Source of the DNA: Haliotis cracherodii
Taxonomy: Eukaryota
Reading direction: 5' to 3'
DNA: 64,000 nt
Assembly (NCBI RefSeq): GCF_022045235.1
Contig: NW_027266343.1
Coordinates: forward strand, 27,900,001 to 27,964,000
Numbering within the stretch: position 1 is the first letter of the stretch; every line of letters starts with the position of its first letter. The notes under the pieces were generated by a model that saw nothing but the letters and a program-made list of their open reading frames with translations, was not told where the DNA came from and searched no databases. Shown in pieces: positions 301 to 57,339 of the stretch. The position numbers and the translations under genes are program-made.

Positions 301-2962
301 ATATATACAGTTATTTCATTGACAAAATCAAAGAACTTGTTTGCTATTATCAAATTTGTTGATGAACAATTTGTTAGTTGTGTTAATGTACTGATTAATA
401 CGTCGACTAATACTAGTAATAAGGATATAACAAATATTTTGAGGATAGAGCTTGTGATTATTTGGGTTGTTTAATCGTAATTTGCCAGTCAGAATCAATG
501 TAACTTTCTCAGATATATTCAGAGATGAAGATGATCCATGGATCACGACTATATGTTGCCACTGATTTTGTCATTAAAGTTCAATGCGGATTTGATTGAA
601 TACTTAATTCTCTATTGAAATTAGGCTTTCGAGTTTCGCAATACTTCTAATATCACTGCATCCTCAACCTACACAAATAGGTCTAGCATAATAAGCACTG
701 AAATTATGTCAGAGTTGCTGTCAGTGTCAGGCAGAACGGTCGACTATCGTGTAGGGGTGATGGTGCTTGTCCAAATAAAATCATACTGTTTATACTTACA
801 TGCTTTTCTTATGCAAAGTGATTTGTAGTTTGGTGCACAGTGACCCCTGTAGGCATGGTCATTAAGGCCAATAATGTACTAAAAGAATGCATTAATCTAA
901 ATTATTACTGCAATCATAAGCCTTCTTTATGTACCGGAAACAGCCCCCTGTTTCAAGGGACATAACTCCCAATGACAAAGTATTCCCGGAAAAACTTATT
1001 GTGTTTATTTAGCTGAAAAGGCGTCTGTTGTTACATTTATCATTGTGTACTGTTAATATTATGCAAGACTGAACTTGACTGGCCGTAATAGTCTGCACCT
1101 TTGCTCATTCACGAAGAATTTGAATAAGACTCGGAAGACTGAATGTCAAAATGGATTGTAATAATTATGAAATTTGACTCGTTTAGGATATAAGGTGGAT
1201 TATGAAACAACAAAATATCGTACTTCAGGTTAAAATATGTATGCCATTGTCAAACCATAACACATAATGAGGAGAACATTTGAAATATGGTAGAATATTT
1301 GACCTTTTGATCCTGATATGAAATCAGGCCGTCCGTTAGTGGGCGTGGCTTATGTTTTTTCACGGATTATGGAAACAAGAATGCCAAAAATAATTGCTTC
1401 AAGTGCCACAGAATTATTTTTTGTGCGTGATCTTAAAAAATATTTTTGAAGTAGTAATATTTTGGAATATTCAAATGTTTTTCATTTTAATTTCTTTGAA
1501 GTTATACAGAAATTGGCATATACACTTACGGATTGGCACGAAGAAAGAATAACACGAAACATATGCTACAAAAAACAACAAGAAAATGAAATAAATTACC
1601 GAGATGTCTGTAGTTTTTATTGGCCTCATTGGAAAGAAACGTAACACAGAACTTGGTGATCAATGTAATAAAAACGTCTGCCTCTGCATTATAACGACAG
1701 CAGCTAAAACACACAATTGTTGTAAAAATATGTTAATCATGCCAATATATATGTATAACAAAGATTTTGATGACCGATCATGTTACAATCTGGGTTGATT
1801 TATCATAACGTGCCTGTCAGCATCACTCTAACTTTCACGCCAAGACAAATGTTTCTGAAGTGCAGTTTTAATTGGCTATGGCTTTCAACTCGTACCACGC
1901 ACGAGACTCATCAAGCCATATCTGATAAACGGACGTTTGTTATATTGTGGCTGAGGGTTTGTGCTGTGCTTTTTCTCTCTGTATATGGCCTAGTATATAT
2001 AACTTAATAATTACCTCAAACATAACCGCATTGTTATATTTTAAAATTCATCAGAATCTTCGATGAACTCTTACCTGTCGTAAATTATGTGTCAGCTTTT
2101 GGAGATAAAGGGGTTTCCAGTTAGAGCTGGCTTGGTAGCTGAAGAAGTAACGGCACTAAATAAGATTTGGAACAGAGCGATAAGTAATGTTTGTCTTTGG
2201 GTAGTTGTGTTTCAGATTTACAGTATCTGTGTTCATGAGGAAATATTTGACAATAACAAACCGTGAACCTATCAGCAGCTTTACTGGAGGTGACACCTTG
2301 TGTGCATTATTATTTAAACTCGATATGGTGCTCTACGTGGTAAATGACATTGTTCGTGCCTGACTACACACAGGCAACACAGTTGGATTACGGATCCTAT
2401 AATAGAACATGGAGTCACCTCCTAGCCCAAACCTATATAAGTGTTTAATAGCTCTCTTCTGATTTTATTGAGTAGAGGTGTTTAATTTACCTTTCAGAGT
2501 ATTGGCTGTTGAGCTAGCTGGTTTTGTAGATAGTTGACACATGACTCAGGGTTGTAGCTGTATGACAGACAATGTTTCAGTCCTGGTGAGATGCAATCAG
2601 TTTCCCGATACATGTACATGTGTATAGCTCACGTGTCTCACTGTCTCAACTATTTGTATAATACGAACATATCATTATTATCTACAGTGGTTGAAGAAAT
2701 ATACTTAGAAAGAAACGATACTAAATGAAATAGTTCTGCCATTCTATCTCGATTTTTAATGGCCTCTTATACATAGACATGTTGCAATCGGAATGCTACT
2801 TTGTGTATCGCGTATGATATTATGGAACGTTCACGTATGATAACAATTTATCCACTGAGTTGGCACCGTGCAATCACCAGCAGCAGATTTCCTGGTTGTA
2901 ACCAAGGAGACATGTTCACCAGGGACTGACTATTTGTTGTAGATCATACATACGGCAACACC

Positions 2963-4976
2963 ATGTCAAAGGGTGCAGTAGCAGTTATCGACAAGAAGGA
3001 TATGACGTCATTAAAATCCCTAAACAAACCGCTTCAGCTGGTTAAAGAGCTCCTGACAGTGACACTCCTGCTCCTGGGCTACCCTGAGAAGGAGGCTGAG
3101 GTAGGGTAAGGCCCAAAACGTAACACAGTGATGGGGGATGGGAGGTGTGTGTGTGTGCGTGCTTGCGTTCGTGCATGCGTGCGCGTGTGTGTGTGTGTTT
3201 GGGGGGGGGGGGGGGGGGGATAAGGTATTCTGACATTAGAGACAGAGAGCTGTTTCAGTTTCACCCAGGTGCTTTGGTGGTAAAATATGAAATACCTGCA
3301 TACCAAATACCCTTACTTATTATAAGCATATTATAATACCTGCAAACAAAATACCCTTACTTATTATAAGCATATTATAAGCATTCCATACCTTGCACAC
3401 ACCGATTACGTCCATGTGATCTATCAAAAAAAAGTGGGTCAATGGTTTCAATAGCCAGATGTCTTAAGAAATACAATATGACCAAAATATTATGACATAA
3501 ACTGCATTTAACCTTTTGGCAATTTAGATTTGGGCGGTTTTGATTCACTGTAATGACTGATAAGATTTTGGCGCTGTCTGGTAGTCTAGTGGTTAAAGAC
3601 ACCAGTTCGATTTCCCATATTGGCAGAATGGGTAGAAGCCAATTTCTGGTGTCCCCCGCCGTGATATTCCTGCAATTTTGAACTTGATACACAGCCTAAC
3701 ACTGGGCATAAATGTGTGCTTTAAATGATATTTGTCCCTCTAATTAATGTTGTAAACGGGAATTGTTGCAGAATCACTTCAACAAACTTCAACATATCTT
3801 AACTTGACGGGGATTGTTCTGAGCCATGATTGGCCGTTTCCCATGTCATTATAATTATGATTTATGTATTATTGGTTTTACACCAGAACTATTACATATG
3901 CCGTCGTGTCTTGGCTGCCCCGGGGAAGGATGGTCTGCAACAGCAGATGATGAACAAGGACGCCAGCTCCATCCCTCCTGACACAGTGGCTAAAGTCAGG
4001 GCTAAGCTGCAAGAGCACTCAGTGGAGAGGACTAAAAATGCGTCCTTAGAATCAGTCGGGCTATACACTTGGGTAAGTGACCAGTTGGCTATACACGTGG
4101 GTAAGTGACCAGTTGGCTATGCACTTGGGTAAGTGACCAGCTGGCTATACACTTGGGTAAGTGACCAGCTGGCTATACACTTGGGTAAGTGACCAGCTGG
4201 CTATACACTTGGGTAAGTGACCAGCTGGCTATACACTTGGGTAAGTGACCAGCTGGCTATACACTTGGGTAAGTGACCAGCTGGCTATACACTTGGGTAA
4301 GTGACTAGTTGGCTGTACACTTGTGTAAGTGACCAGTTGGCTATACACTTGGGTAAGTGACCAGTTGGCTATACACGTGGGTAAGTGACCAGTTGGATAT
4401 ACACGTGGGTAAGTGACCAGTTGGCTATACATGTGGGTAAGTGACCAGTTGGCTATACACGTGGGTAAGTGACCAGGAAAATGCATCGGTTATCGTTTTT
4501 GTCACAGATGCATCAAATATCGAAATGACCTTAACATGTCTACCATAAATCTTCACTTCACAAAGCTTTACTGAGGCCTTAAATGTTGTAACCTTCATCA
4601 AACAACATTAGCGTAAGACCCTCTTTGAAATCATCATAGAAAGAGCAAGCTCGGTTGTACCTCAAAGTTATGAAATGTAAACACAAAAGCCTGGAGCTGC
4701 TGGAAAATTGCTCGACATTAAGGAAAAGTTGACCATTGGAAAGTTGAAGTCATCTTTCTTGTCATACAGTCTTGTGGGGTGTTTTAGGCGTCCAACAAGT
4801 CAGACTAAGTGATATTTCACAGTAATGGCAGAGCTTATGAGGTTTGCGTACGATACTCTGACAATTGTAATCCTGACAATCCATATATAACATTTCTAAT
4901 AATTGTTCACATGATGATGAAGTATTTTGCATCATGTTTTTACTTTTTATTGCAGGCAAGCAAAATGACAGCCTAA
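2963..4976 (+). CDS. Stand-alone dynein-stalk MTBD-like microprotein, copy 1 (114 aa; exons 2963-3100, 3887-4072, 4956-4976)
   Basis: GT/AG phase-0 junctions at the same positions in all three copies. Protein: MSKGAVAVIDKKDMTSLKSLNKPLQLVKELLTVTLLLLGYPEKEAE/NYYICRRVLAAPGKDGLQQQMMNKDASSIPPDTVAKVRAKLQEHSVERTKNASLESVGLYTW/ASKMTA*. It matches the dynein MTBD pattern DIxEIKSxxxPPxxVK..LLG..D..IP..S.A..GL..W. This copy lacks the TATA box and non-coding first exon seen in copies 2 and 3. Confidence 0.72.
3580..3690 (+). mobile_element. Degenerate short tRNA-derived SINE (same family as 33151-33290)
   Basis: ggtagtctagtggttaaag (A-box-like), gttcgatttcc (B-box-like), and the core aagcc(a/c)atttctggtgtcccccg shared with the 33151 copy. 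Confidence 0.6.
4061..4476 (+). repeat. 28-bp minisatellite of reiterated exon end plus 5' splice site (15 units)
   Basis: Unit ctatacac(g/t)tgg|gtaagtgaccag(t/c)tgg, with GT positions from 4073 to 4465 at exact 28-nt spacing. Confidence 0.95.
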
Positions 4977-5049
4977 GTTATAAATGACTGGACATTAGCA
5001 CACGGAATTCGACGAGAACCTGAAGCAAAGACCAAACAGCTTACGAGCA

Positions 5050-5575
5050 TCGGATACACAGAACCAATCAGCCGACCACCATCTGATACACAGCTCCAAT
5101 AAGTTTACCACCATCTGATACACAGCTCCAATCAGCCTACCACCATCTGATACACAGAACTTATCAACCTACCACCATCTGATAAACACAACCAATCAGC
5201 CGACCACCATCTGATACACAGAACCAATCAGCCTACCACCATCTGATACACTGAACCAATCAGCCTACCACCATCTGATACACAGATCCAATCAGCCGAC
5301 CGCCATCTGATACACAGATCCAATCAGCCTACCGCCATCTGATACACAGAACCAATCAGCCGACCACCATCTGATACACAAAACCAATCAGCCGACCACC
5401 ATTTGATACACAGAACTTATCAACCTACCACCATCTGATACACAGATCCAATCAGCCGACCGCCATCTGATACACAGAACCAATCAGCCGACCACCATCT
5501 GATACACAAAACCAATCAGCCGACCACCATCTGATACACAGAACTTATCAACCTACCACCATCTGATACACAGAG
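5050..5575 (+). repeat. 32-bp minisatellite 3' of the copy 1 stop codon, CCAATCAG-rich
   Basis: Unit atctgatacacagaaccaatcagcc(t/g)accacc, about 16 copies. Confidence 0.9.
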
Positions 5576-6584
5576 TCAGCCTTCTAACCAAAAGGATTGT
5601 AATACATTAATGTAAGCCCCAGCACTGGGTTTGCCAACAGTTTACTTGTTGGACAAAGTAGGAACGAATGCTCTGAATGTTTCTGTTTGTTTACAATATA
5701 AGGAAGACCAAATTAAATAAAACAACTCGTGCTTGTGTCCATTTGTTCGTATGTTTCCCCTTCAGCTGAAGGCCCCCGTATGAAAAGGTCCGTGATACGG
5801 GTCATACAGAGCGTGGCCTAATGCTTCTACAACAAGGAACAAGTTGGCCAATCAAGTGTTCAATCAAGGGCTCAATGAAGTAAGCACAGTCCACCTGTTA
5901 AGTTTGTTCACTGTCTACTTCAGAAGATGATCAAATATGGAAGGATCTCAGTTTATTAAAAGAACATTTCTACATTTCCAATCATACGGCGATAGCTGAG
6001 TTAAAAGAATCGTGCAATCGTCTACATCAGCTAAACATAATAATTAAATAACAAGAATGTGACAACCTTCTTTGGCTTTATAAATTATTTATTTTATTCA
6101 GAGACACGAGGTATAACAAGGACAATAAAACCTTTCAAAAAAGGAAGAAACAACAACATTCTCGTAAAACTACAGCCGTAAAAGACACCATGCTTCGGAT
6201 AAAATAAATAAAATTTGACCTATTTAAATTGGGGTTGTCTATGAAGTCGTGCATGCCTGGACAGGTGGATATCATATGCTGAATTGTTGAGAAGACAGTC
6301 ACGGAAGGGGTGTTCTTGACAAACAAAGTTCTTATGTCATAAAGCAAGCCTTAACGTACGTAATGGGTTTTCATGTGATGAAACCCTTGTGAAAACGTTC
6401 ATTGAGCATTTAGTAGACAAACCTTGATGTTCCAATGATTTGAACACCCTAGTTCTCACATTAATCATCGTTTGCGTTTTTTGAAAACAGAAATATAATT
6501 TCATTGAAAGAATGATACAGTAACTCATTTTGAACATTCACATGTCAAATAGTTTCCCAGGACAAGGTTTTGTTTTAAAGTATG

Positions 6585-6910
6585 AATGCTTCACGTAGAG
6601 GTACTGCTGTGGTTTTGTCCTGAGGTCTGTATGTCTCACGCAAAGGTACTGCTGTGGTTTTGTCGAGATGCTTCACGTACTGTTTCGGTTTTGTCGTAAA
6701 GTCCTTATGCTTCACGTACAGGTACTGTTTCGGTTTTGTCGTAAAGTCAGTATGCTTCACGTACAGGTACTGCTGTGGTTTTGTCGTGAAGTCTATGCTT
6801 CACGTACAGGTACTGCTGTGGTTTTGTCGTGAAGTCTGTATGCTTCATGAACAGCAACTGCTGTGGTTTTGTCTGAAGTTTGTATGCTTCACGTGCAGGT
6901 ACTGCTGTTG
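6585..6910 (+). repeat. 45-bp minisatellite
   Basis: Unit tatgcttcacgtacaggtactgctgtggttttgtcgtgaagtctg, about 7 copies, with a paralogous array at 14120-14675. Confidence 0.9.
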
Positions 6911-8550
6911 TTTTAGTTTCAACCAGAGAAATGCAGATCGTTCTATGACAACATGACATGTTCACAAACATGTAGCAATATCTGAAGCATACCATTTGAG
7001 CTAAGCAACATTTGCTCCTCAAATTAATTGAATAGTTGACATACGTATTATCATATTTATTTATTCAACAATTAGTTAAATATTGTCATAACAAAAACTA
7101 CCAATACATTATGTTTGGTTATTTCAACAATGAAAGTAACTTACATTATTATGCTGTTTCGTATAAACAATATCATACAAATAAAATATAAAAAATATAG
7201 TGTATAAGTGTATGCATATATCTTGGTAGTAACAGCTTTGACACAAGGTAACAGTATTCAGTTACATTGTTACACATGTCAGTCTGTCATATTGCATACT
7301 TCATTTAAAATAATATCATACATCTTGCAAACAATGTTGTGTTGAACATTGTCTGTTGCTGAGCAAGGGGTTCCTGAAAGAGATAAATACAGTGTGGCAA
7401 CATCAAGATCATCTTGGTAACAGTCATGTCTTCAACTCATGACTTATACGTAAGAGTGGAAATAGCGGTAAAAATAATATGAATGGGGCACTGAAAAGCA
7501 GCGATGAAAGTAACAAAAGAGGCATACATGTGTAAATGCAGTAACTTAATTTAAAAAATAGCAGCTACATTAAGAGTTAATACAACTTGTAACCCCATTT
7601 ATACCATCCTCTTTGAACTTATGTCAAACATTACCAATTCAACAAAAGGAAAATAGAAGCCTTCTCTCGATTTAAAACCCGTTAAAGAACATATAAGTTT
7701 ACAGTTTAACCATATTTCTCATGTGGTCTAAAAACATAAACTCATACGTACAACATTAGGACATGGTGATCGAGAATTAAAACAAGATTATTTAGAACAG
7801 GTTCAAACGAAGAGGTAAGTCTGTTGTTGAGGGCGGTCTAAGTAGTGATAACTTGTGCACAAAACGGTTCACATAAATAATTCAAACGAAGCACGTGTCT
7901 ACATCCCACAAATGGGTAAAACGAATGATTTGTCAAAAGCAAACGCAACTGGAGAATGGGGGAACAGGTGAACGGGGGACAGGGACTTGTCGCCCATAAA
8001 GAAGTATTGGCCTATAACAATATCTAAACAGATCAACAGTCCCACTGAAGGTCCACAGCGTGTGCGTGTCGAGCACACAACTTTGTTTACGAATCTCTAT
8101 AATTAGTAGTGTACGTGGTAAATGACATTATTCGTGCCTGACTACACCTGGCTGCCAATCTCGGATTAATTTGCATGGTTTCCAGAACTGCGACGTGCTC
8201 CTGCAATATAATATGACGTCATCGTCTTACTCGTGGCTATAGCAGTGTTGATTGTTCTAGAATGCCTTGACTGAGACTGAATGCAAGGCAGGACAGGTGA
8301 GAACACTCATGTGTACATTCTCCTTAACGATACTGTAATCAGCAGCCTTACTGGAGGTGACACCTTGTGTGTGTCGTGCACACGGCATCATTATTTAAAC
8401 TCGATATGGTGCTCTACGTGGTAAATGACATTGTTCGTGCCTGACTACACACAGGCAACACAGTTGGATTACGGATCCTATAATAGAACATGGAGTCACC
8501 TCCTAGCCCAAGCCTATATAAGTGTTGAATGTTCTCGAGTGTTGGGTCAG

Positions 8551-8611
8551 TATATAAAGCAGGACAGCGGCGACTTAAACACATACATTTACATCACCAG
8601 GACAGGTGAGT
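8551..8611 (+). promoter_or_regulatory. TATA box and short non-coding first exon of MTBD-like copy 2
   Basis: TATATAAA at 8551-8558, then ...caggacag|gtgagt with a donor at 8606. The acceptor ttgttgtag lies about 20 nt before the ATG at 9178. Copy 3 has the same arrangement. Confidence 0.65.
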
Positions 8612-9177
8612 ACGCTAACATGTTCATTTTCTTTAACAATACTGTAATGCTTTAATAGCCATCTTCTGATTTTATTGAGTGGAGGTGTTTAATTTACCTT
8701 TCAGAGTATTGGCTGTTGAGCTAGCTGGTTTTGTAGATAGTTGACACATGACTCAGGGTTGTAGCTGTATGACAGACAATGTTTCAGTCCTGGTGAGATG
8801 CAATCAGTTTCCCGATACATGTACATGTGTATAGCTCACGTGTCTCACTGTCTCAACTATTTGTATAATACGAACATATCATTATTATCTACAGTGGTTG
8901 AAGAAATATTCTTGGAAAGAAACGATACTAAATGAAATAGTTCTGCCATTCTATCTCGTTTTTTAATGGACTCTTACGAATAGACATGTTGCAATCGGAA
9001 TGCTACTTTGTGTATCGCGTATGATATTATGGAACGTTCAAGTTGTCTTATATGATAACAATTTATCCACTGAGTTGGCACCGTGCAATCACCAGCAGCA
9101 GATTTCATGGTAGTAACCAAGGAAACATGTTCACCACGGACTGACTATTTGTTGTAGATCATACAGAAAGCAACACC

Positions 9178-12100
9178 ATGTCAAAGGGCGGAAATACAGT
9201 TATCGACAAGAATGATATCACGGTAATAAAATCCTTAAGTAACCCGCCTCAGCTGGTCAAAGAACTCCTGACAGTGACACTCCTGCTGCTGGGCTATCCG
9301 GAGAAGGAGGCTGAGGTATTTTCCGTCTCATCGGGGTGTCTTGTCATCCAAAAAAGTCTCGACAGCAATATGGCCTGTTGACTACAATTTGTCTACAGTC
9401 AAACCTCCTTGCGACGTGGTCATGCGTTGCTCCTTTGTGTATCAGACCAACAGCTTGTTCTTGCTGTTGAAGCGTTAATCTACCCATGCTCATGTCCTAC
9501 AGTTTGAGTGTGAATGAACGGTACATCGTTCTTTGTATATCAATATCTGTGTTATTTTGGCATGCTGTTAGTGCAGCCAGAGTTTCACTTACAACTCACG
9601 TTCCCTTGATCTGGGTACCGTAGCACGTGCATTACTCAGCATATTGTTTTGGTTGTGTTTGGGAGATTGACTCTCAACCATTTTGTATCACTATTCTGGC
9701 TTTGGACCCGACGTGTCCAAATTTAAGTTTGGTAACGTTTCTACGTCAGTTTACATCAACAGTTATGCTATTTATGTCCATTATCCACAATCTTAGTAAC
9801 TGAAATGTTCATTCCTCGATCAGTTGTGAATACATATCATGTCAAGTTGACCAGTTTACAAGATGTAAAGAATGCACTTATATTATACCAAAATTCTTTG
9901 AACCATGACCACGCCCCCCCCCCCCCCCCATGGCCGTTTCCCATATCATTATAATTATGATTTATATGTTATTGGTTTTACACCAGAACTATAACATATG
10001 CCGTCGTGTCTTGGCTGCCCCGGGGAAGGATGGTCTGCAACAGCAGATGATGAACAAGGACGCCAGCTCCATCCCTCCTGACACAGTGGCCAAAGTCAGG
10101 GCTAAGCTGCAAGAGTACTCAGTGGAAAAGGCAATGTGCGTGTGCTGTGCTTCAGTCGGGCTATACACGTGGGTAAGTGACCAGTTGGCTTTACACGTGG
10201 GTAAGTGACTAGTTGGCTATACACGTGGGTAAGTGACCAGTTGGCTATACATGTGGGTAAGTGACCAGCTGGCTATACACGTGGGTAAGTCACCAGTTGG
10301 CCATACACGTTAGTAAGTGACCAGCTGGCTATACACGTGGGTAAGTAACGAGTTGGTTGTACACGTGGGTAAGTGACCAGTTGGCCATACACGTTAGTAA
10401 GTGACCAGCTGGCTATACACGTGGGTAAGTGACGAGTTGATTGTACACATGGGAAAGTGACCAGCTGGCTATACACGTGGGTAAGTGACCAGTTGGCTAT
10501 ACACGTGGGTAAGTAACGAGTAGGTTGTACACATGGGAAAGTGACCAGTTGCCTATACACGTGGGTAAGTGACCAGTTGGCTATACATGTGGATAAGTGA
10601 CCAGTTGGTTGTACACGTGGGTAAGTGACCAGCTGGCTGTACACGTGGGTAAGTGACGACTTGGTTGTACACGTGGGTAAGTGACCAGCTGGCTATACAC
10701 ATGGGTAAGTGACCAGGTGGCTATATAAGTGGGTAAATAACGAGTTGGTTGTACACGTGGGTAAGTGACCAGTTGGCTATACACGTGGGTAATTGACCAG
10801 CTGGCTGTACACATGGGAAAGTGACCAGTTGGCTATACACGTGGGTAAGTGACCAGTTGGCTATACACGTGGGTAAGTGACCAGTTGGCTATACATGTGG
10901 ATAAGTGACCAGTTGGTTGTACACGTGGGTAAGTGACCAGCTGGCTATACACATGGGTAAGTGACGACTTGGTTGTACACGTGGGTAAGTGACCAGCTGG
11001 CTATACACGTGGGTAAGTGACGACTTGGTTGTACACGTGGGTAAGTGACCAGATGGCTATACACATGGGTAAGTGACCAGGTGGCTATATAAGTGGGTAA
11101 ATAACGAGTTGGTTGTACACGTGGGTAAGTGACCAGTTGGCTATACACGTGGGTAATTGACTAGCTGGCTGTACACATGGGAAAGTGACCAGTTGGCTAT
11201 ACACGTGGGTAAGTGACCAGTTGGCTATACACGTGGGTAAGTGACCAGTTGGCTATACACGTGGGTAAGTGACCAGCTGGCTATACACGTGGGTAAGTGA
11301 CCAGTTGGCTATACACGTTAGTAAGTGAGCAGTTGGCTATACAACTGGGTAAGTGACCAGTTGGCTATACAAGTGGGTAAGTAACGAGTTGGTTGTACAC
11401 GTGGGTAAGTGACCAGTTGGCTATACACGTGGGTAATTGACCAGCTGGCTATACACGTGGGTAAGTGACCAGTTGGTTGTACACGTGGGTAAGTGACCAG
11501 CTGGCTATACACGTGGGTAAGTGACCAGTTGGCTATACACGTGGGTAAGTGACCAGTTGGCTATACACGTGGGTAAGTGACCAGCTGGCTATACATGTGG
11601 GTAAGTGACCAGTTGGTTGTACACGTGGGTAATTGACCAGTTGGCTATACACGTAGGTAAGTGACCAGTTGGTTGTACACGTGGGTAATTGACCAGTTGG
11701 CTATACACTTGGGTAAGTGACCAGCTGGCTATACACGTGGGTAAGTAACGAGTTGGTTGTACACGTGGGTAAGTGACCAGCTGGCTGTACACGTGGGTAA
11801 GTGACGACTTGGTTGTACACGTGGGTAAGTGACCAGTTAAAGCTGTGTTGACAAACAATGTATAGGCTGAAGTTTACATAGGTATTGAAAATAAATAAAA
11901 GCTACAAAAAACACTTTTGATATTCATAAGAAATATCGGCTAAAAGCAGGGTAGATTGTGCGATTCTGACTATATCATAAGCATGTATTTATGAAGCACT
12001 TATCAAATAGTGATGATAGCAGGTGTCCGTGAAAGGTTGAGTGTATCATGCCCCACCGGTGGCGTCCGTCACAAACACATACAAAGGCAAGTCAACTGTT

Positions 12101-12641
12101 CACCTAAAAAGACGAGAACATATGGTACGTGTTAAAATAGGAAATTGCATCCGTCATCGTTTTTGTCACAGATGTGTCAAATTTGGAAATGACCTCAACA
12201 TGTCTACCATAAATCTTCACTTCACAAAGCTTTACTGAGGCCTTAAATGTTGTAACCTTCATCAAACAACATTAGCGTAAGACCCTCTTTGAAATCATCA
12301 TAGAAAGAGCAAGCTCGGTTGTACCTCAAAGTTATGAAATGTAAACACAAAAGCCTGGAGCTGCTGGAATATTCCTCGAAATAAAGGAAAAGTTGACCGT
12401 TGGAAAGTTGAAGTCATCTTTCTTGTCATACAGTCTTGTGGGGTGTTTTGGGCGTCCAACAAGTCAGACTAAGTGATATTTCTAAGTAATGACAGAGCTA
12501 ATGACGTTTGCTTACGACACACTGACAATTGTAATCATAACAATCCATATATAACATTAGTTAATATCTGTTCACATGATGATGAAGTATTTTGCATCAT
12601 GTTTATACTTTTTATTGCAGGCAAGCAAAATGACAGCCTAA
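9178..12641 (+). CDS. Stand-alone dynein-stalk MTBD-like microprotein, copy 2 (114 aa; exons 9178-9315, 9987-10172, 12621-12641)
   Basis: Same exon lengths (138/186/21 nt) and splice sites as the other copies. Protein: MSKGGNTVIDKNDITVIKSLSNPPQLVKELLTVTLLLLGYPEKEAE/NYNICRRVLAAPGK...LQEYSVEKAMCVCCASVGLYTW/ASKMTA*. Confidence 0.8.
10161..11837 (+). repeat. 28-bp splice-donor minisatellite (60 units)
   Basis: First donor GT at 10173, last at 11825. The difference is 1652 = 59 x 28, so there is no net indel. Confidence 0.95.
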
Positions 12642-12713
12642 GTTATAAATGACTGGACATTAGCACACGGAATTCTACGAGAACCTGAAGCAAAGACCAA
12701 ACAGCTTACGAGC

Positions 12714-13220
12714 ATCTGATACACAGAACCAATCAGCCGACCACCATCTGATACACAGCTCCAAGCAGCCTACCGCCATCTGATACACAGCACCAATCAG
12801 CCTACCGCCATCTGACACACAGAACCAATCAGCCTACCACCATCTGAAACACAGAACCAGTCAGCCTACCACCATCTGATACACAGAACCAATCAGCCTA
12901 CCACCATCTGATACACAGCTCCAAGCAGCCTACCGCCATCTGATACACAGCACCAAGCAGCCTACCGCCATCTGACACACAGAACCAATCAGCCTACCGC
13001 CATCTGAAACACAGAACCAATCAGCCTACCACCATCTGATACACAGATCCAATATGCCTACCACCATCTGATACACAGAACCATACACAGAACCAATCAG
13101 CCTACCGCCATCTGATACACAGAACCAATCAGCCGACCACCATCTGATACACAGATCCAATCAGCCGACCACCATCTGATACACAGATCCAATATGCCTA
13201 CCACCATCTGATACACAGAG
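12714..13220 (+). repeat. 32-bp CCAATCAG-containing minisatellite 3' of the copy 2 stop codon
   Basis: Same unit as 5050-5575. Confidence 0.9.
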
Positions 13221-14119
13221 TCAGCCTTCCAAAAGGATTGTAATACATTAATGTAAGCCCCAGCACTGGGTTTGCCAACAGTTTACTTGTTGGACAAAGT
13301 AGGAACGAATGCTCTGAATGTTTCTGTTTGTTTACAATATAAGGAAGACCAAATTAAATAAAACAACTCGTGCTTGTGTCCATTTGTTCGTATGTTTCCC
13401 CTTCAGCTGAAGGCCCCCGTATGAAAAGGTCCGTGATACGGGTCATACAGAGCGTGGCCTAATGCTTCTACAACAAGGAACAAGTTGGCCAATCAAGTGT
13501 TCAATCAAGGGCTCAATGAAGTAAGCACAGTCCACCTGTTAAGTTTGTTCACTGTCTACTTCAGAAGATGATCAAATATGGAAGGATCTCAGTTTATTAA
13601 AAGAACATTTCTACATTTCCAATCATACGGCGATAGCTGAGTTAAAAGAATCGTGCAATCGTCTACATCAGCTAAACATAATAATTAAATAACAAGAATG
13701 TGACAACCTTCTTTGGCTTTATAAATTATTTATTTTATTCAGAGATACGAGGGAAAACAAGGACTATTAAACCCTTCAAAAAGGAAGAAACAACAACATT
13801 CTCGTAAAACTACAGCCGTAAAAGACACCATGCTTCGGATAAAATAAATAAAATTTGACCTATTTAAATTGGGGTTGTCTATGAAGTCGTGCATGCCTGG
13901 ACAGGTGGATATCATATGCTGAATTGTTGAGAAGACAGTCACGAAAGGGGTGTTCTTGACAAACAAAGTTCTTATGTCATCAAGGAAGCCTAAACGTACG
14001 TAATGGGTATTCAGGGGATGAAACCCATGTGAAAACGTTCTTTGATTATTTAGTATAAAAACCTTGATGTTGATGATTTTGAACACCCCAGTTCTCATAT
14101 AAAAGATCGTTTGCATTTT

Positions 14120-14675
14120 AGAGGTACTTCTGTGGTCTCGTCGATAAGTCTGTATGCTTCACGTAGAGGTACTTCTGTGGTCTCGTCGATAAGTCTGTAT
14201 GCTTCACGTAGAGGTACTTCTGTGGTCTCGTCGATAAGTCTGTATGCTTCACGTAGAGGTACTTCTGTGGTTTCGTCGATAAGTCTGTATGCATCACGTA
14301 GAGGTACTGCTGTGGTTTTGTTTTGAAGTTTGTATGCTTCACGTAGATGTACTGCTATGGTTTTGTCATGAAGTCTGTATGCTTCACGTACAGGTACTGC
14401 TGTGGTTTTGTCGTGAAGTCTTTATGCTTCACGTAGAGGTACTGCTGTGGTTGTGTCGTGAAGTTTGTATGCTTCACGTACAGGTACTGCTGTGGTTTTG
14501 TCTGAAGTTTGTATGCTTCACATAGAGGTACTGCTGTGGTTTTGTCGTGGAGTCTGTATGCTTCACGTACAGGTACTGCTGTGGTTTTGTCGCGAAGTTT
14601 GTATGCTTCACGTACAGGTACTGCTGTGGTTTTGTCGTGGAGTCTGTATGCTTCACGTACAGGTACTGCTGTGGT
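14120..14675 (+). repeat. 45-bp minisatellite
   Basis: Same unit as 6585-6910, about 12 copies. It explains the periodic ORFs at 14111-14883. Confidence 0.9.
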
Positions 14676-16088
14676 AACTTACATTATTATGCTGTTTCGT
14701 ATAAACAATATCATACAAATAAAAAATAAAAAATATAGTGTATTAGTATATACATATATCTTGGTAGTAACAGCTTTGACACAAGGTAACAGTATTCAGT
14801 TACATTGTTACACATGTCAGTCTGTCATATTGCATACTTCACTTAAAATAATATCATACATCTTGCAAACAATGTTGTGTTGAACATTGTCTGTTACTGA
14901 GCAAGGGGTTCCTGAAAGAGATAAATACAGTGTGGCAACATCAAGATCATCTTGGTAACAGTCATGTCTTCAACTCATGACTTATACGTGAGAGTTGAAA
15001 TAGCGGTAAAATAATATGAATGGGGCACTGAAAATCAGCGATGAAAGTAACAAAAGAGGCATACATGTGTAAATGCAGTAACTTAATTTAAAAAATAGCA
15101 GCTACATTAAGAGTTAATACAACTTGTAACCCCATTTATACCATCCTCTTTGAACTTATGTCAAACATTACCAATTCAACAAAAGGAAAATAGAAGCCTT
15201 CTCTCGATTTAAAACCCGTTAAAGAACATATAAGTTTACAGTTTAACCATATTTCTCATGTGGTCTAAAAAACATAAACTCATACGTACAACATTAGGAC
15301 ATGGTGATCGAGAAATAAAACAAGATTATTTAGAACAGGTTCAAACGAAGAGGTAAGTCTGTTGTTGAGGGCGGTCTAAGTAGTGATAACTTGTGCACAA
15401 AACGGTTCACATAAATATTTCAAACGAAGCACGTGTCTACATCCCACAAATGGGTAAAACGAATGATTTGTCAAAAGCAAACGCAACTGGAGAATGGGGG
15501 AACAGGTGAACGGGGGACAGGGACTTGTCGCCCATAAAGAAGTATTGGCCTATAACAATATCTAAACAGATCAACAGTCCCACTGAAGGTCCACAGCGTG
15601 TGCGTGTCGAGCACACAACTTTGTTTACGAATCTCTATAATTAGTAGTGTACGTGGTAAATGACATTATTCGTGCCTGACTACACCTGGCTGCCAATCTC
15701 GGATTAATTTGCATGGTTTCCAGAACTGCGACGTGCTCCTGCAATATAACATGACGTCATCGTCTTACTCGTGGCTATAGCAGTGTTGATTGTTCTAGAA
15801 TGCCTTGACTGAGACTGAATGCAAGGCAGGACAGGTGAGAACACTCATGTGTACATTCTCCTTAACGATACTGTAATCAGCAGCCTTACTGGAGGTGACA
15901 CCTTGTGTGTGTCGTGCACACGGCATTATTATTTAAACTCGATATGGTGCTCTACGTGGTAAATGACATTGTTCGTGCCTGACTACACACAGGCAACACA
16001 GTTGGATTACGGATCCTATAATAGAACATGGAGTCACCTCCTAGCCCAAGCCTATATAAGTGTTGAATGTTCTCGAGTGTTGGGTCAG

Positions 16089-16149
16089 TATATAAAGCAG
16101 GACAGCGGCGACTTAAACACATCCATTTACATCACCAGGACAGGTGAGT
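16089..16149 (+). promoter_or_regulatory. TATA box and non-coding first exon of MTBD-like copy 3
   Basis: TATATAAA at 16089-16096 and donor cag|gtgagt at 16144, near-identical to 8551-8611. Confidence 0.65.
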
Positions 16150-16715
16150 ACGCTAACATGTTCATTTTCTTTAACAATACTGTAATGCTTTAATAGCCAT
16201 CTTCTGATTTTATTGAGTAGAGGTGTTTAATTTACCTTTCAGAGTATTGGCTGTTGAGCTAGCTGGTTTTGTAGATAGTTGACACATGACTCAGGGTTGT
16301 AGCTGTATGACAGACAATGTTTCAGTCCTGGTGAGATGCAATCAGTTTCCCGATACATGTACATGTGTATAGCTCACGTGTCTCACTGTCTCAACTATTT
16401 GTATAATACGAACATATCATTATTATCTACAGTGATTGAAGAAATATATTTGGAAAGAAACGATACTAAATGAAATAGTTCTGCCATTCTATCTCGTTTT
16501 TTAATGGACTCTTACGAATAGACATGTTGCAATCGGAATGCTACTTTGTGTATCGCGTGTGATATTATGGAACGTTCACGTTGTCTTACATGATAACAAT
16601 TTATCCACTGAGTTGGCACCGTGCAATCACCAATAGCAGATTTCATGGTTGTAACCAAGGAGACATGTACACCACGGACTGACTATTTGTTGTAGATCAT
16701 ACAGAAGGCAACACC

Positions 16716-19700
16716 ATGTCAAAGGGCGGAAATACAGTTATCGACAAGAATGATATCACGGAAATAAAATCCCTAAGTAACCCGCCTCAGCTGGTCAAAG
16801 AACTCCTGACAGTGACACTCCTGCTGCTGGGCTACCCTGAGAAGGAGGCTGAGGTCAGTTCCGTAACACCATGGTGAGAGGGGAGGGGGGGGAGCGTTAG
16901 TAGTGAGGTAGTGAGGTCGGTCATACGCGAGGCAGAGATGCGGGTCGGCCGACTAATGGTGGGTGACTGCAGATGACAATCACATTGATTATATGGGGTG
17001 GACAGTTGGATTTCTGGCGGCTGGCGAAGTATGTGTGTGTATTTGGGAGAGGAGGGGGTAGGGGGTAGAATGTTCTTATAACTGCTTGAAAATAAATCTC
17101 ATCATCTAAAGAAGTCTATCGTTCGTCAACAGCCAAACCTCCCTGGTCATCCGTTGCTCCTTGATGTCTGTATCAGAGCAACAGCTTGTTCTTGCTGTTA
17201 AAGCGTAATCTTCCCATGCCCCTGTCCAACCGTTTGATTGTAAATGAACAGTACATCTTTATTTTTATATCCATATCTATGTAGGTTGGCATGCTGTTAG
17301 TGCAGCCAAGTTTCACTTAAAACTCACGTTCCCTTGATCTGGGTACCGTAGCACGTGCATTACTCAGCAAATTGTTTGGGCCATTGACTCTCAACCATTT
17401 TGTATCACTATTCTGGCTTTGGACCCGACGTGTCCAAATTTCAGTTTGGTAACGTTTCTTCATCAGTTTACATCAAAAGTTATGCTATTTATGTCCATTA
17501 TCCACAATCTTAGTAATTGAAAAGTTCATTCCTCGATCAGTGTTGAATACATATCATGTCAAGTTGACCAGTTTTCTGTCATTCTGAAGAAGACTGAACA
17601 CTGGGTGCTTGCCATACAAGGTGTAAACAATGGTCTTTTATTATTTCAAAATGCTTTAGTATGCTGCTATTTTAAATGTTCTGTTATAAAACCACCTACT
17701 TATATATCGCCTAAATATCACATCAACCGCCCCAGAGATGGGTATCAGTGAACGAACAGATTATACGACTCTTCAAATGGGAAAATGGACGTCACATTAT
17801 TTGAAGACATCTACATTTGGAAATGATGAAGGGTTGGGCGAAAAGCAATGATGGTAGATCCCTGCATTCAGGAAGACTGGTAGATTGAACTTTCTTGAAA
17901 TAGTACATATTAAAGATTCAAGTTAGTACAGCTAAACACCATTGATAATGGCTGATGTTAATACTGATGCAAGTGCATTTACCCAAACACGATGGATACT
18001 AGAGTGTATCCTTTCTAAACAAAATAAGGGGTACACCACAAAGGCAATATTTTCAAGAGAAGAATTGTAAAAGATGTCATAATGCAGGCTGCAGGAAACT
18101 GCACATATTCATCTTCGTGGCGACTCCCCATGATTGGCCGTTGCCCATGTCATTATTATTATGATTTCTGTATTATTGGTTTTACACCAGAACTATAACA
18201 CGTGCCGTCGTGTCGTGGCTGACACAGGGAAGGATGGTCTGCAGCAGCAGATGATGAACAAGGACGCCAGCTCCATCCCTCCTGACACAGTGGCCAAAGT
18301 CAGGGCTAAGCTGCAAGAGCACTCGGTGGAAAGGGCTAAGAAAGTGTCCTTAGCTTCAGCCGGACTATACACGTGGGTAAGTGACTATTTGGCTATACAT
18401 GTGGGTAAGTGACCAGTTGGCTATACACTTGGGTAAGTGACCAGTTGGCTATGCACATGGGTAAGTGACTAGTTGTCTATGCACGTGGGTAAGTGACCAG
18501 TTGGCTATACACGTGGGTAAGTGACCAGTTGGCTATACACGTGGGTAAGTGACTAGTTGGCTATGCACGTGGGTAAGTGACCAGTTGGCTATACACTTGG
18601 GTAAGTGACCAGTTGGCTATACACGTCGGTAAGTGACCAGTTGGCTATACATGTGGGTAAGTGACCAGTTGGCTATACACGTGGGTAAGTGACTAGTTGG
18701 CTATACACGTGGGTAAGTGACCAGTTGGCTATACACGTGGGTAAGTGACCAGTTGGCTATACACGTGGGTAAGTGACCAGTTGGCTATACATGTGGGTAA
18801 GTGACTAGTTGGCTATACACGTGGGTAAGTGACTAGTTGGCTATACACGTGGGTAAGTGACCAGTTGGCTATACACGTGGGTAAGTTACCAGTTGGTTCA
18901 ACAGTATGGTCTGTGTGGTGCTATACTTGTGGGTAAGTGACTGGTTCAACAGTATGATCTGTGTGGTGGAATACTTGTGGGTAAGTGACTGGTTCAACAG
19001 TGTGGTCTGTGTGGTGCTATACTTGTGGGTAAGTGACTGGTTCAACAGTGTGGTCTGTGTGGTGTATTACTTGTGGGTAGGTGACTAGTTCAACAGTGTG
19101 GTCAGGGTGGTGCAATACTTGTGGGTAAGTGGCCGGTTCAACAGTGTGGTCTGTGTGGTGCAAAACTTGTTGGTATGTGACTGGTTCAACAGTGCTGTTT
19201 GGGCGGTGCAATACTTGTGTGTGACCTGTTCAACAGTGTGGTCAGGGTGGTGCAATGCTTGTGGGTAGGTGACTGGTTCAACAGTGTTGTCGGGGTGGTG
19301 CAATGCTTGTGGGTAGGTGACTGGTTCAACAGTGTTGTCGGGGTGGTGCAATGCTTGTTGGTAAGTGACTGGGTCAACAGTGTGGTCTGTGTGGTGCAAT
19401 ACTTGTGGGTAAGTGACCGGTTCAACAGTGTTGTCGGGGTGGTGCAATGCTTGTTGGTAAGTGACTGGGTCAACAGTGTGGTCAGGGTGGTGCAATACTT
19501 GTGGGTAAGTGACCGGTTCAAAAGTGTTGTCGGGGTGGTGCAATGCTTGTGGGTAAGTGACCGGTTCAACAGTGTGGTCTGTGTGGTGCAATACTTGTGG
19601 GTGGGTGACTGGTTCAACAGTGTGGTCTGTGTGGTGCAATACTTGTGGGTAGGTGACTAGTTCAAATGTGGTAAGGGTGGTGCTATACTTGTTGATATGT

Positions 19701-20114
19701 TACATGAGTGCGAGACACATGAATATGGAATATTAGTGTTTTAAGTGATAGCTTACGTTTGTGTAGAGAATGTTAATATTTTCAACATACAGTAATCTAC
19801 GTTGCATTATTTTATTTATTATAACCATTGGTCATTATAAGCACATATACAGCATACAGACAGGACCAAAACACAGTTCATTATATCCGCCAATTCATTA
19901 TAACCGTGTTCAATATAAACATAGTTTACTGTACATTGTATAACTGTTAGTGTATTGGGCATTGATGACTGGGTATCTGGAAAGGTCTTAGTTTGAAGTA
20001 TAGCCAAGTGTACAGGTTTTCAACCAATCTAAAGGGTTAAAGGGTAATGTTTCTAATATAAACGTTGTACATCACATGTGTGTTTTATTGCAGGCAGCCA
20101 AGATGACAGCGTAA
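16716..20114 (+). CDS. Stand-alone dynein-stalk MTBD-like microprotein, copy 3 (114 aa; exons 16716-16853, 18191-18376, 20094-20114)
   Basis: Protein: MSKGGNTVIDKNDITEIKSLSNPPQLVKELLTVTLLLLGYPEKEAE/NYNTCRRVVADTGKDGLQQQMMNKDASSIPPDTVAKVRAKLQEHSVERAKKVSLASAGLYTW/AAKMTA*. The last exon keeps its acceptor, frame and stop although its flanks are diverged from copies 1 and 2, which supports the gene model. This copy is closest to the dynein consensus (DITEIKS..NPP; KKVS.A.AGL..W). Confidence 0.82.
18365..18895 (+). repeat. 28-bp splice-donor minisatellite (19 units)
   Basis: Donor GT from 18377 to 18881, a difference of 18 x 28. Confidence 0.95.
18896..19700 (+). repeat. 48-bp minisatellite retaining the tgg|gtaagtgac donor core
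   Basis: Unit tacttgtgggtaagtgactggttcaacagtgtggtctgtgtggtgcaa, about 16 copies. It accounts for the periodic ORFs at 18906-19660. Confidence 0.9.
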
Positions 20115-40222: not shown

Positions 40223-41009
40223 ATGGAGAAACAGTATTCAGTTGAGTTCTTTATGAACTTTGTGGAAAACATTCAGAATCTATGTCACAACTTTCTTGAG
40301 TTCAATCAGAATGTGGAGGTGAGCGGCTATGTCTGTGTGGACATCGACAACATGAAGAAGGAGAGGTATGTTCTCAGTGAGATAGTCCAAATGGGAGGCA
40401 ACTCCATCAGCGAGAGCTACTGTACTAAAGTCTTCAAAACCACTCCCACAGGCACTGTGCAGAGGAGTGGATTCCGGGACATCACAAACGCTCGAGTCCC
40501 CAGTACAGCAACAAGTTCGGGGGAAGTGAATGTGCCAGGACATTCGTATTCATCACAAAGGATGAGGACTGGTCATCAGAGGAAAAGTGAAAGCTCCCAC
40601 ACATTATCTTTGAACATGGCTGTTTCACCAAGGTCACAAACAAAGACAGCTATTGACCAAACTTGTAGTGTCTTTCAAGGTCATAATGCCAGTTCAAACA
40701 GTAATAGTAGTTTTCTTAACCCCAGTGTGACAGGCATTCAAGGACGTGAGTCTGGCTCAGGGGATTCCCAAAATCGGACGAAGTCAAGACAGTTGACTCC
40801 AAAAGTATGTAGACCAGCAACAGTGCCTAACAGTTCTGTGCTTAAAAGACGGTGTGAACCTTCCCCCCTGTCAGACAGCGGTGATGATGCGGATGTGATA
40901 GTTGTGAAGCAAGAGCCGTGTGACGAGGAGCGGGAGGAGCACGGCGATCAGCCTCCTGTCAAGCGCCGGAGCGAGACGTTCCGTCTACCTTCATCACTAA
41001 CAGGAGGAG
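40223..41009 (+). CDS. Common first coding exon (A) of a zinc-finger gene: shared unnamed N-terminal domain plus Ser-rich linker
   Basis: Acceptor ttctaattgcag before 40186, ATG at 40223, donor gag|gtatgt after 41009 (787 nt, phase 1). The first ~73 aa align without gaps to the N-terminus of the minus-strand gene. A SUMO consensus VKQE is present. Confidence 0.85.
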
Positions 41010-41276
41010 GTATGTAGTTATTTCATCAGTCATCGTCATGCTGTTTTTATGTTCTCTTAGTAATATTTGAATGTTGAATGCTATGCAATGCTCAGATTTA
41101 ATGATATGGCTATACACTATCTCTGCAACAGTAAACCTGCTCACATGAAAATGTTTTGTCATTGCTATACATTTACGTTTTTACAAGACAGTACTCACCA
41201 CAAGTAGGTCTGGGGAGCAATCCTTCTAAATCTGTAAATAGGTAATGCTTCTGCAATAATGTTTCCAAAATGGTTG

Positions 41277-50338: not shown

Positions 50339-50362
50339 ACCCTCACATCTGAAGGATCCTTG

Positions 50363-50972
50363 TGTTCTGAAGACATGTTCTGAAGACATGTTCGTTCATT
50401 AAAAGTGTGCTCCATAACGCACCCGGAGCCTATAGATCGCGCTTCACGTGCACTCGTGTTAGTTTTAAAAAGGAATCTGTTCTCCAAAACACACCCGATG
50501 CATAACGATCGCATCGCCTGAACACACCAACGTATGGCTGTGACTGCACGTGAAATGTGAGGATGTAAGCAAATATAAGGCGGTAGCGCGCATCAGTTAG
50601 TTAGTTGGTCATAGTTCGCTAGAGAGCTGGTTAGAGTTCGCTAGATGGTTAGTTAGATGGTTAGACAGTTGACCAGAGTTCGTTAGAGAGTTCGTTGGTT
50701 AGACATGGCGTTAGACAGTGTTAGACAGTGTTAAGACTCCCTTAGGAGTAACTGTTAGAATTAGCATTTAGTTTCTTTCATTTGAGGTTGATTCATCTTT
50801 CCTTCATATAATAACAGGTAATCACGTTTAGTTCCTTATAGGTCTTCATAGTTTTATAACAGGTTATCACGTTTAGTTCCTGGATACCACAAAAAAGGTA
50901 AGTCATACAAATTTTACATTAGTTTTCATTTAAGTTAAACCACGCTCAAATATTCAGTTCCACTGCGCAACA
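50363..50972 (+). repeat. 5' LTR
   Basis: Starts tgttctgaagaca (x2) and ends gcgcaaca. It appears identical to 56730-57339. Confidence 0.95.
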
Positions 50973-56729: not shown

Positions 56730-57339
56730 TGTTCTGAAGACATGTTCTGAAGACATGTTCGTTCATTAAAAGTGTGCTCCATAACGCACCCGGAGCCTAT
56801 AGATCGCGCTTCACGTGCACTCGTGTTAGTTTTAAAAAGGAATCTGTTCTCCAAAACACACCCGATGCATAACGATCGCATCGCCTGAACACACCAACGT
56901 ATGGCTGTGACTGCACGTGAAATGTGAGGATGTAAGCAAATATAAGGCGGTAGCGCGCATCAGTTAGTTAGTTGGTCATAGTTCGCTAGAGAGCTGGTTA
57001 GAGTTCGCTAGATGGTTAGTTAGATGGTTAGACAGTTGACCAGAGTTCGTTAGAGAGTTCGTTGGTTAGACATGGCGTTAGACAGTGTTAGACAGTGTTA
57101 AGACTCCCTTAGGAGTAACTGTTAGAATTAGCATTTAGTTTCTTTCATTTGAGGTTGATTCATCTTTCCTTCATATAATAACAGGTAATCACGTTTAGTT
57201 CCTTATAGGTCTTCATAGTTTTATAACAGGTTATCACGTTTAGTTCCTGGATACCACAAAAAAGGTAAGTCATACAAATTTTACATTAGTTTTCATTTAA
57301 GTTAAACCACGCTCAAATATTCAGTTCCACTGCGCAACA
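56730..57339 (+). repeat. 3' LTR
   Basis: Follows the PPT and matches the 5' LTR. Confidence 0.95.

Follow-up and report, generated by a model that had tools for sequence, protein, structure and literature searches.

We identified three head-to-tail copies of one four-exon gene in a 64,000-nt window of the Haliotis cracherodii genome (GCF_022045235.1, contig NW_027266343.1, 27,900,001-27,964,000, forward strand). The window is the whole stretch of DNA analyzed, and coordinates below are positions within it. Each copy encodes 114 residues, and all three proteins consist of a dynein microtubule-binding domain (MTBD) only, without stalk or motor. We tentatively favor the reading that gene conversion homogenizes the copies while selection keeps one strong and two weak or altered predicted binding faces apart. 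Relaxed constraint on two of the copies is a close rival to this combination of selection and conversion, and classical diversifying selection is less likely.

The three coding sequences lie where a preliminary description of this DNA had placed them, and its assignment of the proteins to dynein-type MTBDs is borne out by profile and structural matches. An AlphaFold model of copy 3 (37-sequence alignment, mean predicted local distance difference test score 84.8) contains helices at residues 11-18, 25-37, 48-56, 63-69, 77-88, 92-98 and 100-113, of which 11-18, 48-56 and 92-98 are H1, H3 and H6. The best VIA match of this model is the mouse MTBD 3ERR (Z 14.1, root-mean-square deviation (rmsd) 1.9, 105 aligned residues). 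Of the 48,161 chains searched, six have Z 8 or higher, and dynein stalk or MTBD entries fill all six top rows. Foldseek gave TMq values of 0.73-0.77 in its top four rows, none at E<=0.001. Scores for Pfam PF12777, a model that spans the whole 344-position stalk, were 19.7 bits for copy 3, 15.3 for an H. rufescens relative and 29.3 for one from H. rubra (gathering cut-off 24 bits), and Pfam searches with single exons returned nothing above cut-off. As modeled, the protein adopts an MTBD fold with six short helices, H1-H6, that pack as in solved MTBDs.

Variable residues and the predicted tubulin interface

Twenty-six of the 114 positions vary among the three copies: three at residues 5-7, seven at 12-24, five at 49-58, ten at 90-103 and one at 110. 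Residues 25-48 and 59-89 are identical in all copies. The preliminary description had reported invariant blocks separating three patches of change, apart from the termini, and this holds: 22 of the 26 variable sites fall at 12-24, 49-58 and 90-103. Mapping onto the AlphaFold model and a profile alignment places these patches on H1, H3 and H6, as had been proposed. The same helices form the tubulin interface in dyneins (PMC6629372 and PMC7042235, both in excerpt).

With strict helix limits, 12 of 24 H1/H3/H6 sites vary, compared with 10 of the 77 others (residues 8-108; Fisher p=0.0004), so that variable sites are concentrated on the predicted interface. Adjacent variable codons merge into 11 runs, of which 6 touch the strict set (p=0.045) and 9 touch a wide set that was drawn with the patches already in view (p=0.007). 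Clustering is therefore beyond chance, yet weaker than the site count suggests.

Interface clustering is not general to the family. Among 56 independent non-abalone domain pairs of 50-92% identity, the pooled interface/rest ratio is 0.95 and the maximum 3.26; the abalone pairs have ratios of 4.52, 4.52 and 3.17. The two MTBDs that lie in tandem in a Batillaria protein differ at 15 of 38 wide-set sites, compared with 2 of 62 others, and are identical in H4 and H5. Because the clustering is unusual against the control pairs and recurs in another snail, selection of some form on the interface face stays likely.

Several of the altered residues correspond to known tubulin contacts. In the profile alignment, abalone residues 11, 16, 18, 49, 57 and 97 match mouse K3299, E3304, R3306, K3334, R3342 and R3382; the yeast counterparts of residues 16 and 97 are E3122 and R3201. 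The yeast pair bridges alpha-tubulin R402 and E415/E420 (excerpted text of PMC7042235), and the Dictyostelium pair E3390 and R3469 is described as highly conserved and critical (PMC4298687, in excerpt). Copy 3 carries E16 and K97, copy 1 S16 and N97, and copy 2 V16 and C97. Of six yeast salt-bridge residues (K3117, E3122, R3124, R3152, R3159, R3201), copy 3 keeps four, as K11, E16, K18 and K97, and R52/R53 might substitute on its H3; copies 1 and 2 keep two of the six.

Loss of both contacts together is rare elsewhere in the family. E16 occurs in 254 of 268 non-abalone domains, and just 8 have neither an acidic residue at 16 nor a basic one at 97. Copy 1 also alters P24 and copy 2 alters S99, each 93% conserved. 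Family profile scores are 122.9 bits for copy 3, 113.9 for copy 2 and 102.5 for copy 1. Because copies 1 and 2 have lost the family's most conserved residues, they are predicted to be weaker or altered microtubule binders rather than binders of new specificity. The direction of change is loss of canonical contacts in two copies, not divergence among three equally good surfaces. With K11, K18, R52 and R53 invariant in the three copies, copies 1 and 2 may retain a degree of electrostatic binding.

The preliminary description had also proposed a lipidation or redox site in a cysteine cluster of copy 2 (residues 97-100 of 114). Prenylation uses a C-terminal CaaX box and myristoylation an N-terminal Gly2. 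Neither motif is present in copy 2, whose residue 2 is Ser, and the proposal finds no support. The Cys run coincides with three copies of a 5-base repeat, and because of this overlap M96 and C97 may have arisen in one templated event. M96, C97 and C99 are common to copy 2 and H. rufescens, so the cluster is old.

Probable gene conversion and selection, and rival readings

We compared the DNA around the coding exons among copies. Positions 7138-9326 and 14676-16864 are 98.4% identical, 5575-6479 and 13220-14118 are 96.2% identical, and some flanks are identical over 500 bases. Kilobases of near-identical non-coding DNA, as first reported, thus exist in these blocks; the description does not extend to intron 2, where the alignable part of copies 2 and 3 is 87% identical, or to most of copy 1 intron 2 and the late intron 3 and 3' untranslated region (UTR) of copy 3, which are unalignable to the other copies. 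Four-fold sites differ between copies at 6/49, 8/48 and 5/52 positions (10-17%), compared with 2.9% in intron 1. The flanks have therefore been homogenized, and we rejected them as a measure of the neutral rate.

Divergence between copies 1 and 2 peaks at two helices, H1 and H6. Windows of 50 bases there hold 9-14 differences, and the aligned windows on either side 0-5. The 3' flank of these two copies contains 10 consecutive windows with no differences. Silent divergence rises together with replacement divergence in the patches (copy 1 vs copy 2 pS/pN, the silent and replacement differences per site: H1 0.20/0.21, H6 0.49/0.43). Such divergence peaks amid converted DNA are described as a signature of selection keeping duplicates different (PMC3924837, in excerpt).

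Copy 2 is a mosaic with a copy-3-like front and a copy-1-like back. Singleton changes sort by exon (0 of 5000 permutations as extreme): copy 1 stands apart in exon 2 (17/20), and copy 3 in exon 4 (4/4) and the first part of exon 3 (7/9). In blastn blocks and exon-wise singletons, a tandemly duplicated segment runs from ~3831-9930 and is repeated as ~9931-18134 (3831-18134, + strand), with its junction near the 3' end of intron 2. We infer that copy 2 is a chimera produced by unequal crossing-over near the end of this intron. Mosaic ancestry and local silent and replacement peaks in homogenized DNA, the marks of concerted evolution, are both present.

The H6 types appear older than the homogenization of their flanks, since the copy-2 type also occurs in H. 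rufescens P0004 and the copy-1 type in organism B. An organism B contig differs from copy 1 at 3 of 77 bases across H6 (4001-4077) and joins the copy-1/2 last exon. Paralogous flanks differ by 0-1%, and contigs from organisms B and C differ from copy 3 by ~4-6%.

These observations suggest a sequence of events. An old duplication would have given rise to the copy-1 and copy-3 types, and unequal crossing-over near the end of intron 2 would have produced copy 2. Gene conversion would later have overwritten flanks and core. Selection acting against conversion of the patches would leave silent and amino-acid peaks together, not a ratio of replacement to silent substitution rates (dN/dS) above 1. 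In this reading, copy 3 would engage tubulin in the manner of dynein, and binding by the other two copies would be weak or different.

Repeated positive selection on binding specificity, with dN/dS above 1, was the preliminary description's explanation; binding might be tuned, for example, to particular tubulin isotypes or tubulin modifications, or by an arms race related to sperm. We consider this explanation unlikely. Whole-gene dN/dS by the Nei-Gojobori method is 0.53, 0.46 and 0.51 for the three pairs. Inside the originally defined patches, which were chosen post hoc, it is 1.02-1.20 (Fisher p=1.0), and outside them 0.17-0.19. On the model-derived helices it reaches 1.28-1.34, not distinguishable from 1 (p=0.37-0.49), and a fixed-sites model gives 1.28 on the strict helices (vs 1, p=0.49) and 0.32 elsewhere.

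Site models were borderline. M2a assigned ~6% of sites an omega near 8 and was preferred to M1a at p=0.049 with one tree, 0.039 with exon-specific branches and 0.10 with a three-segment split; these tests used our own implementation (F3x4, star tree) on three recombining sequences and so have little power. Multi-nucleotide mutations are reportedly a cause of false positive-selection signals (10.1101/165969). Allowing adjacent double-base changes alone gained 7.6 log units, and the M1a/M2a comparison then gave p=0.49 and 0.43, so that the signal vanished. Further amino-acid-changing letters at codons 6-12 in organism B contigs and the enriched interface of the Batillaria pair would fit repeated positive selection; the climb of silent sites along with replacement sites does not. 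Moreover, tubulin docking residues are highly conserved (PMC4298687, in excerpt), and there is thus little left to be specific for. Diversifying selection as first proposed is therefore not established.

Relaxed constraint is possible, and we rate it somewhat below selection plus conversion. Copies 1 and 2 would have been freed from microtubule binding, and their contact face would drift neutrally and escape conversion once diverged; the fold would persist for reasons of dosage, or because a partner docks on the H2/H4/H5 side. This accounts for dN/dS near 1 in the patches and 0.18-0.32 outside, for changes in the most conserved residues (E16, 96%; P24, 93%; S99, 93%) and for the stepwise drop in profile score from copy 3 to copy 2 to copy 1. 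Across codons 25-46 and 59-89, a region chosen post hoc, all 7 changes are silent, and H5 of an outer-arm dynein MTBD is reported to bind light chain 1 (excerpt of PMC10205576), consistent with a kept fold. Three observations fit relaxed constraint poorly. Copy 3, whose contacts are intact, has changes of its own in H3; in the Batillaria pair these helices diverged with E16 and K97 kept; and the H1 peak stands beside a nearly unchanged intron.

Several observations weigh against selection holding the copies apart. First, patch dN/dS near 1 is also what neutral drift of a relaxed surface would give, and multi-base events account for part of the clustering. Second, the residue map was read by hand from the profile alignment, and only 120 of 268 family domains have a base at residue 97. 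Third, at strict limits the Batillaria pair differs at 7 of 24 interface sites and 10 of 76 others, and both of its domains keep E16 and K97; among 10 within-protein pairs (60-95% identity), 4 are enriched at p<0.01 and 6 are not, and two of the 4 are from the same Batillaria gene. Fourth, differences between copy 3 and H. rubra are likewise enriched at the interface (11/24 vs 19/76, p=0.07; wide set p=0.015), and fast interface change is therefore not confined to duplicates. Fifth, the ends of exon 3 encode H3 and H6 and adjoin a diverged intron and a minisatellite. Conversion tracts may end there even in the absence of selection, and the H3 and H6 peaks could arise by neutral escape at these edges. 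H1 alone lacks such an edge, its peak adjoining a 97% identical intron. Finally, copy 1 may be silent in H. cracherodii, since both of its first-exon donors are absent.

That last point also bears on the idea that copies 1 and 2 are decaying duplicates, whose patches are mutational accidents made of a few multi-base events and conversion edges. The coincidence of the copy 2 Cys run with a short repeat and the absence of a copy-1 protein among database matches would agree with decay. We regard it as highly improbable: every frame is intact, as is every coding splice site; amino-acid changes outside the patches are few; copy 2 is annotated and shares its H6 type with H. rufescens; and organism B splices a copy-1-type H6 to the last exon.

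Gene structure and other features of the window

All gene features are on the + strand. The coding exons of copy 1 lie at 2963-3100 (residues 1-46, H1 and H2, with S16 and L24 where E and P are conserved), 3887-4072 (residues 47-108, H3-H6, with N97 and E101) and 4956-4976, with the stop; the same exon type forms the loose end of an organism B contig. Upstream, a remnant at 2271-2446 lacks the ~126-bp counterpart of copy 2 positions 8525-8650, which comprise most of exon 1 plus the splice donor in copy 2. The alternative first-exon donor is absent from copy 1 as well; its frame and coding splice sites are intact. No copy-1 protein was present among the matches returned by protein database searches. 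In organism A runs X1-X3, no listed contig carried copy-1 letters in exon 2, the contigs showing presence only and their absence being uninformative.

Copy 2 has two alternative first exons within 8280-8605, with donors after 8296 and 8605. Its first coding exon (9178-9315) is copy-3-like, with 4 of 138 bases different, and encodes V16. The second (9987-10172) is copy-1-like over its first 130 bases (3 differ) and encodes an H6 with M96, C97, C99 and C100; the last (12621-12641) is identical to that of copy 1. The copy 2 protein is identical to H. cracherodii P0005, apart from 12 extra residues that P0005 gains by using the upstream alternative first exon.

The main first exon of copy 3 (15963-16143) joins to 16696 with GT..AG ends; its 5' end is not fixed, with contig starts at 15971-16067. 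Coding exons follow at 16716-16853 (E16 and P24 retained), 18191-18376 (K97 and S99 retained) and 20094-20114, where the stop exon, the loose end of an X8 contig, lies beyond the region covered by the preliminary description. The copy 3 protein is identical to P0001, annotated as 'cytoplasmic dynein 2 heavy chain 1-like'.

The gene is not part of a dynein heavy chain, since spliced contigs reach the stop exon and both first exons contain an in-frame stop, 67 and 12 codons upstream, respectively. In addition, no further MTBD or dynein exon was seen in the 10 kb upstream, and we ruled out a heavy-chain fragment. Contigs aligned to copy 3 skip introns, and an RNA origin of the runs is our guess. 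They show the exon 2-3 joint with GT..AG ends in 3 of 4 runs and the exon 1-2 joint with such ends in 2 of 4, the other two having one extra letter. One 1022-base X8 contig spans exons 1-3 and enters a stop exon of the copy-3 type.

A search of the same genome with exon 3 matched only the three loci (3 of 11 candidates scored, a lower bound). With exon 2, at least 5 of 11 candidates scored a match, two of them distant genes. An assembly artefact, in which alleles are falsely duplicated, is unlikely: the copies differ in their introns and in H6 type, and two of the types are also present in other organisms.

In each copy, a 28-bp minisatellite has grown from the exon-3 splice donor: 15 units at 4059-4476 in copy 1, 60 at 10159-11838 in copy 2 and 19 at 18365-18896 in copy 3. 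The unit is the amplified end of exon 3 plus the donor, and a perfect donor motif is found in 14, 43 and 18 units, respectively. Later donors, if used, would alter the C-terminus (119-166 residues); aligned contigs use the first donor. Intron 2 of copy 1 contains a fragment of a very abundant short interspersed repeat (~3600-3680), matched by hundreds of contigs per run.

Elsewhere, a ~70-residue N-terminal module with no Pfam match opens three open reading frames (ORFs), at 27417-28784 (-) and 40223-41017 (+) in the window and at 8235-9119 (-) in locus L015. These lie near ORFs with DUF3504 and C2H2 zinc fingers, and the set, which includes 26020-27063 (-) in the window and 1071-2447 (-) in L015, looks like a local gene family. 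A Pao/BEL-type retrotransposon at 51075-56615 (+) encodes protease, reverse transcriptase and integrase domains in one 1846-residue ORF, with matching repeats at ~50360-50660 and ~56730-57020.

Relatives and comparison with known systems

Motor-less MTBDs are widespread among invertebrates and protists. A profile search of 1.84 billion representative proteins returned 360 matches at E<=0.001, of which the best 150 were listed. Pfam annotation of 60 relatives (P0011-P0070) shows single and tandem MTBDs and KY/transglutaminase-like, TPR and CFAP97-like hosts, with no AAA motor family. Named stand-alone members come from bivalves, gastropods, one brachiopod and one tunicate, and are annotated 'dynein heavy chain-like' or uncharacterized. 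In the phylogenetic tree, the abalone clade alone is resolved. No description or functional study of motor-less MTBD proteins was found in the literature searched, which excludes subscription papers, and the excerpted text of a dynein survey (PMC5100056) does not mention them.

Several family members differ in architecture. The KY-like immunoglobulin proteins P0018, P0049, P0052, P0062, P0064 and P0068 have an MTBD-like domain, usually C-terminal, that Pfam does not call, and most also have a transglutaminase-like domain. The tandem pair P0011/P0160 (Batillaria attramentaria) may be two fused gene models. Other H. cracherodii loci with MTBD-like exons are L007/L013 (G000:C34), L008/L010 (G000:C16) and L014 (G000:C1). 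In L007 and L008 the exon stands behind a helical segment, as in KY/transglutaminase-type relatives; L009 (C45) reads like cytoplasmic dynein itself. Two structural matches are possible unrecognized motor-less MTBD folds and serve as leads only: the Chlamydomonas radial-spoke chain 7jtk_C (Z 10.2, rmsd 2.6, 110 aligned) and the Toxoplasma intraconoidal-microtubule chain 9ya2_L (Z 7.5, rmsd 3.2, 104 aligned), both of which align with the model across insertions. The excerpt of PMC12819142 makes no mention of a dynein fold.

The MTBD has been studied almost solely as the tip of a motor. The abalone product could be a small protein that decorates microtubules statically, placed in the alpha/beta intradimer cleft that dynein itself uses. 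Bound there, it could stabilize the lattice or compete with motors, and the three copies would range from strong to weak binders. The widespread stand-alone form would then be a new kind of small microtubule-associated protein on the dynein footprint. More speculatively, and with considerable doubt, gastropods may repeatedly duplicate this undescribed motor-less MTBD while selection retunes only its tubulin-facing helices, giving graded microtubule-site blockers or tubulin-code readers that compete with dynein. The three copies are a ready comparison, having a near-identical core with and without two salt bridges known to matter for dynein. If their binding differs, the locus is also a compact case of paralogues kept divergent in the face of gene conversion; if not, it is an ordinary small tandem cluster with relaxed surface residues.

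Human red and green opsin duplicates are likewise close tandem copies with homogenized flanks and a local divergence peak at functional sites (PMC3924837, as excerpted). In the opsins the functional difference is measured, whereas in the abalone copies it is predicted only, and copy 2 is chimeric. The stand-alone relatives (Pecten, Argopecten, Ostrea, Saccostrea, Nucella, Elysia, Aplysia, Mactra, Lingula, Clavelina, Batillaria) share the same 105-130 residue design at 28-40% identity. Unlike the abalone copies, many relatives hold 2-9 tandem MTBDs, or have the domain at the end of a KY/transglutaminase-like, TPR or CFAP97-like protein.

The closest known systems include the MTBD of dynein heavy chains (central part of PF12777 'MT'; PDB 3ERR, 5AYH, 6RZB, 6KIO, 8I3J, 6L4P). 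The abalone proteins share its six-helix fold and CC2 start (Z 12.8-14.1, rmsd 1.8-2.2), with 23-27% identity to the best structural matches, and the family profile matches dyneins with E down to 5e-21. Unlike dynein heavy chains, they lack the AAA ring and the coiled-coil stalk, and hence the registry switch. DNAH7-type dyneins have a flap where the abalone MTBDs have only a short loop, and the H3 salt-bridge positions 49 and 57 are not basic in any abalone copy. K11, K18 and R52 are kept in all three copies, and E16 and K97 in copy 3.

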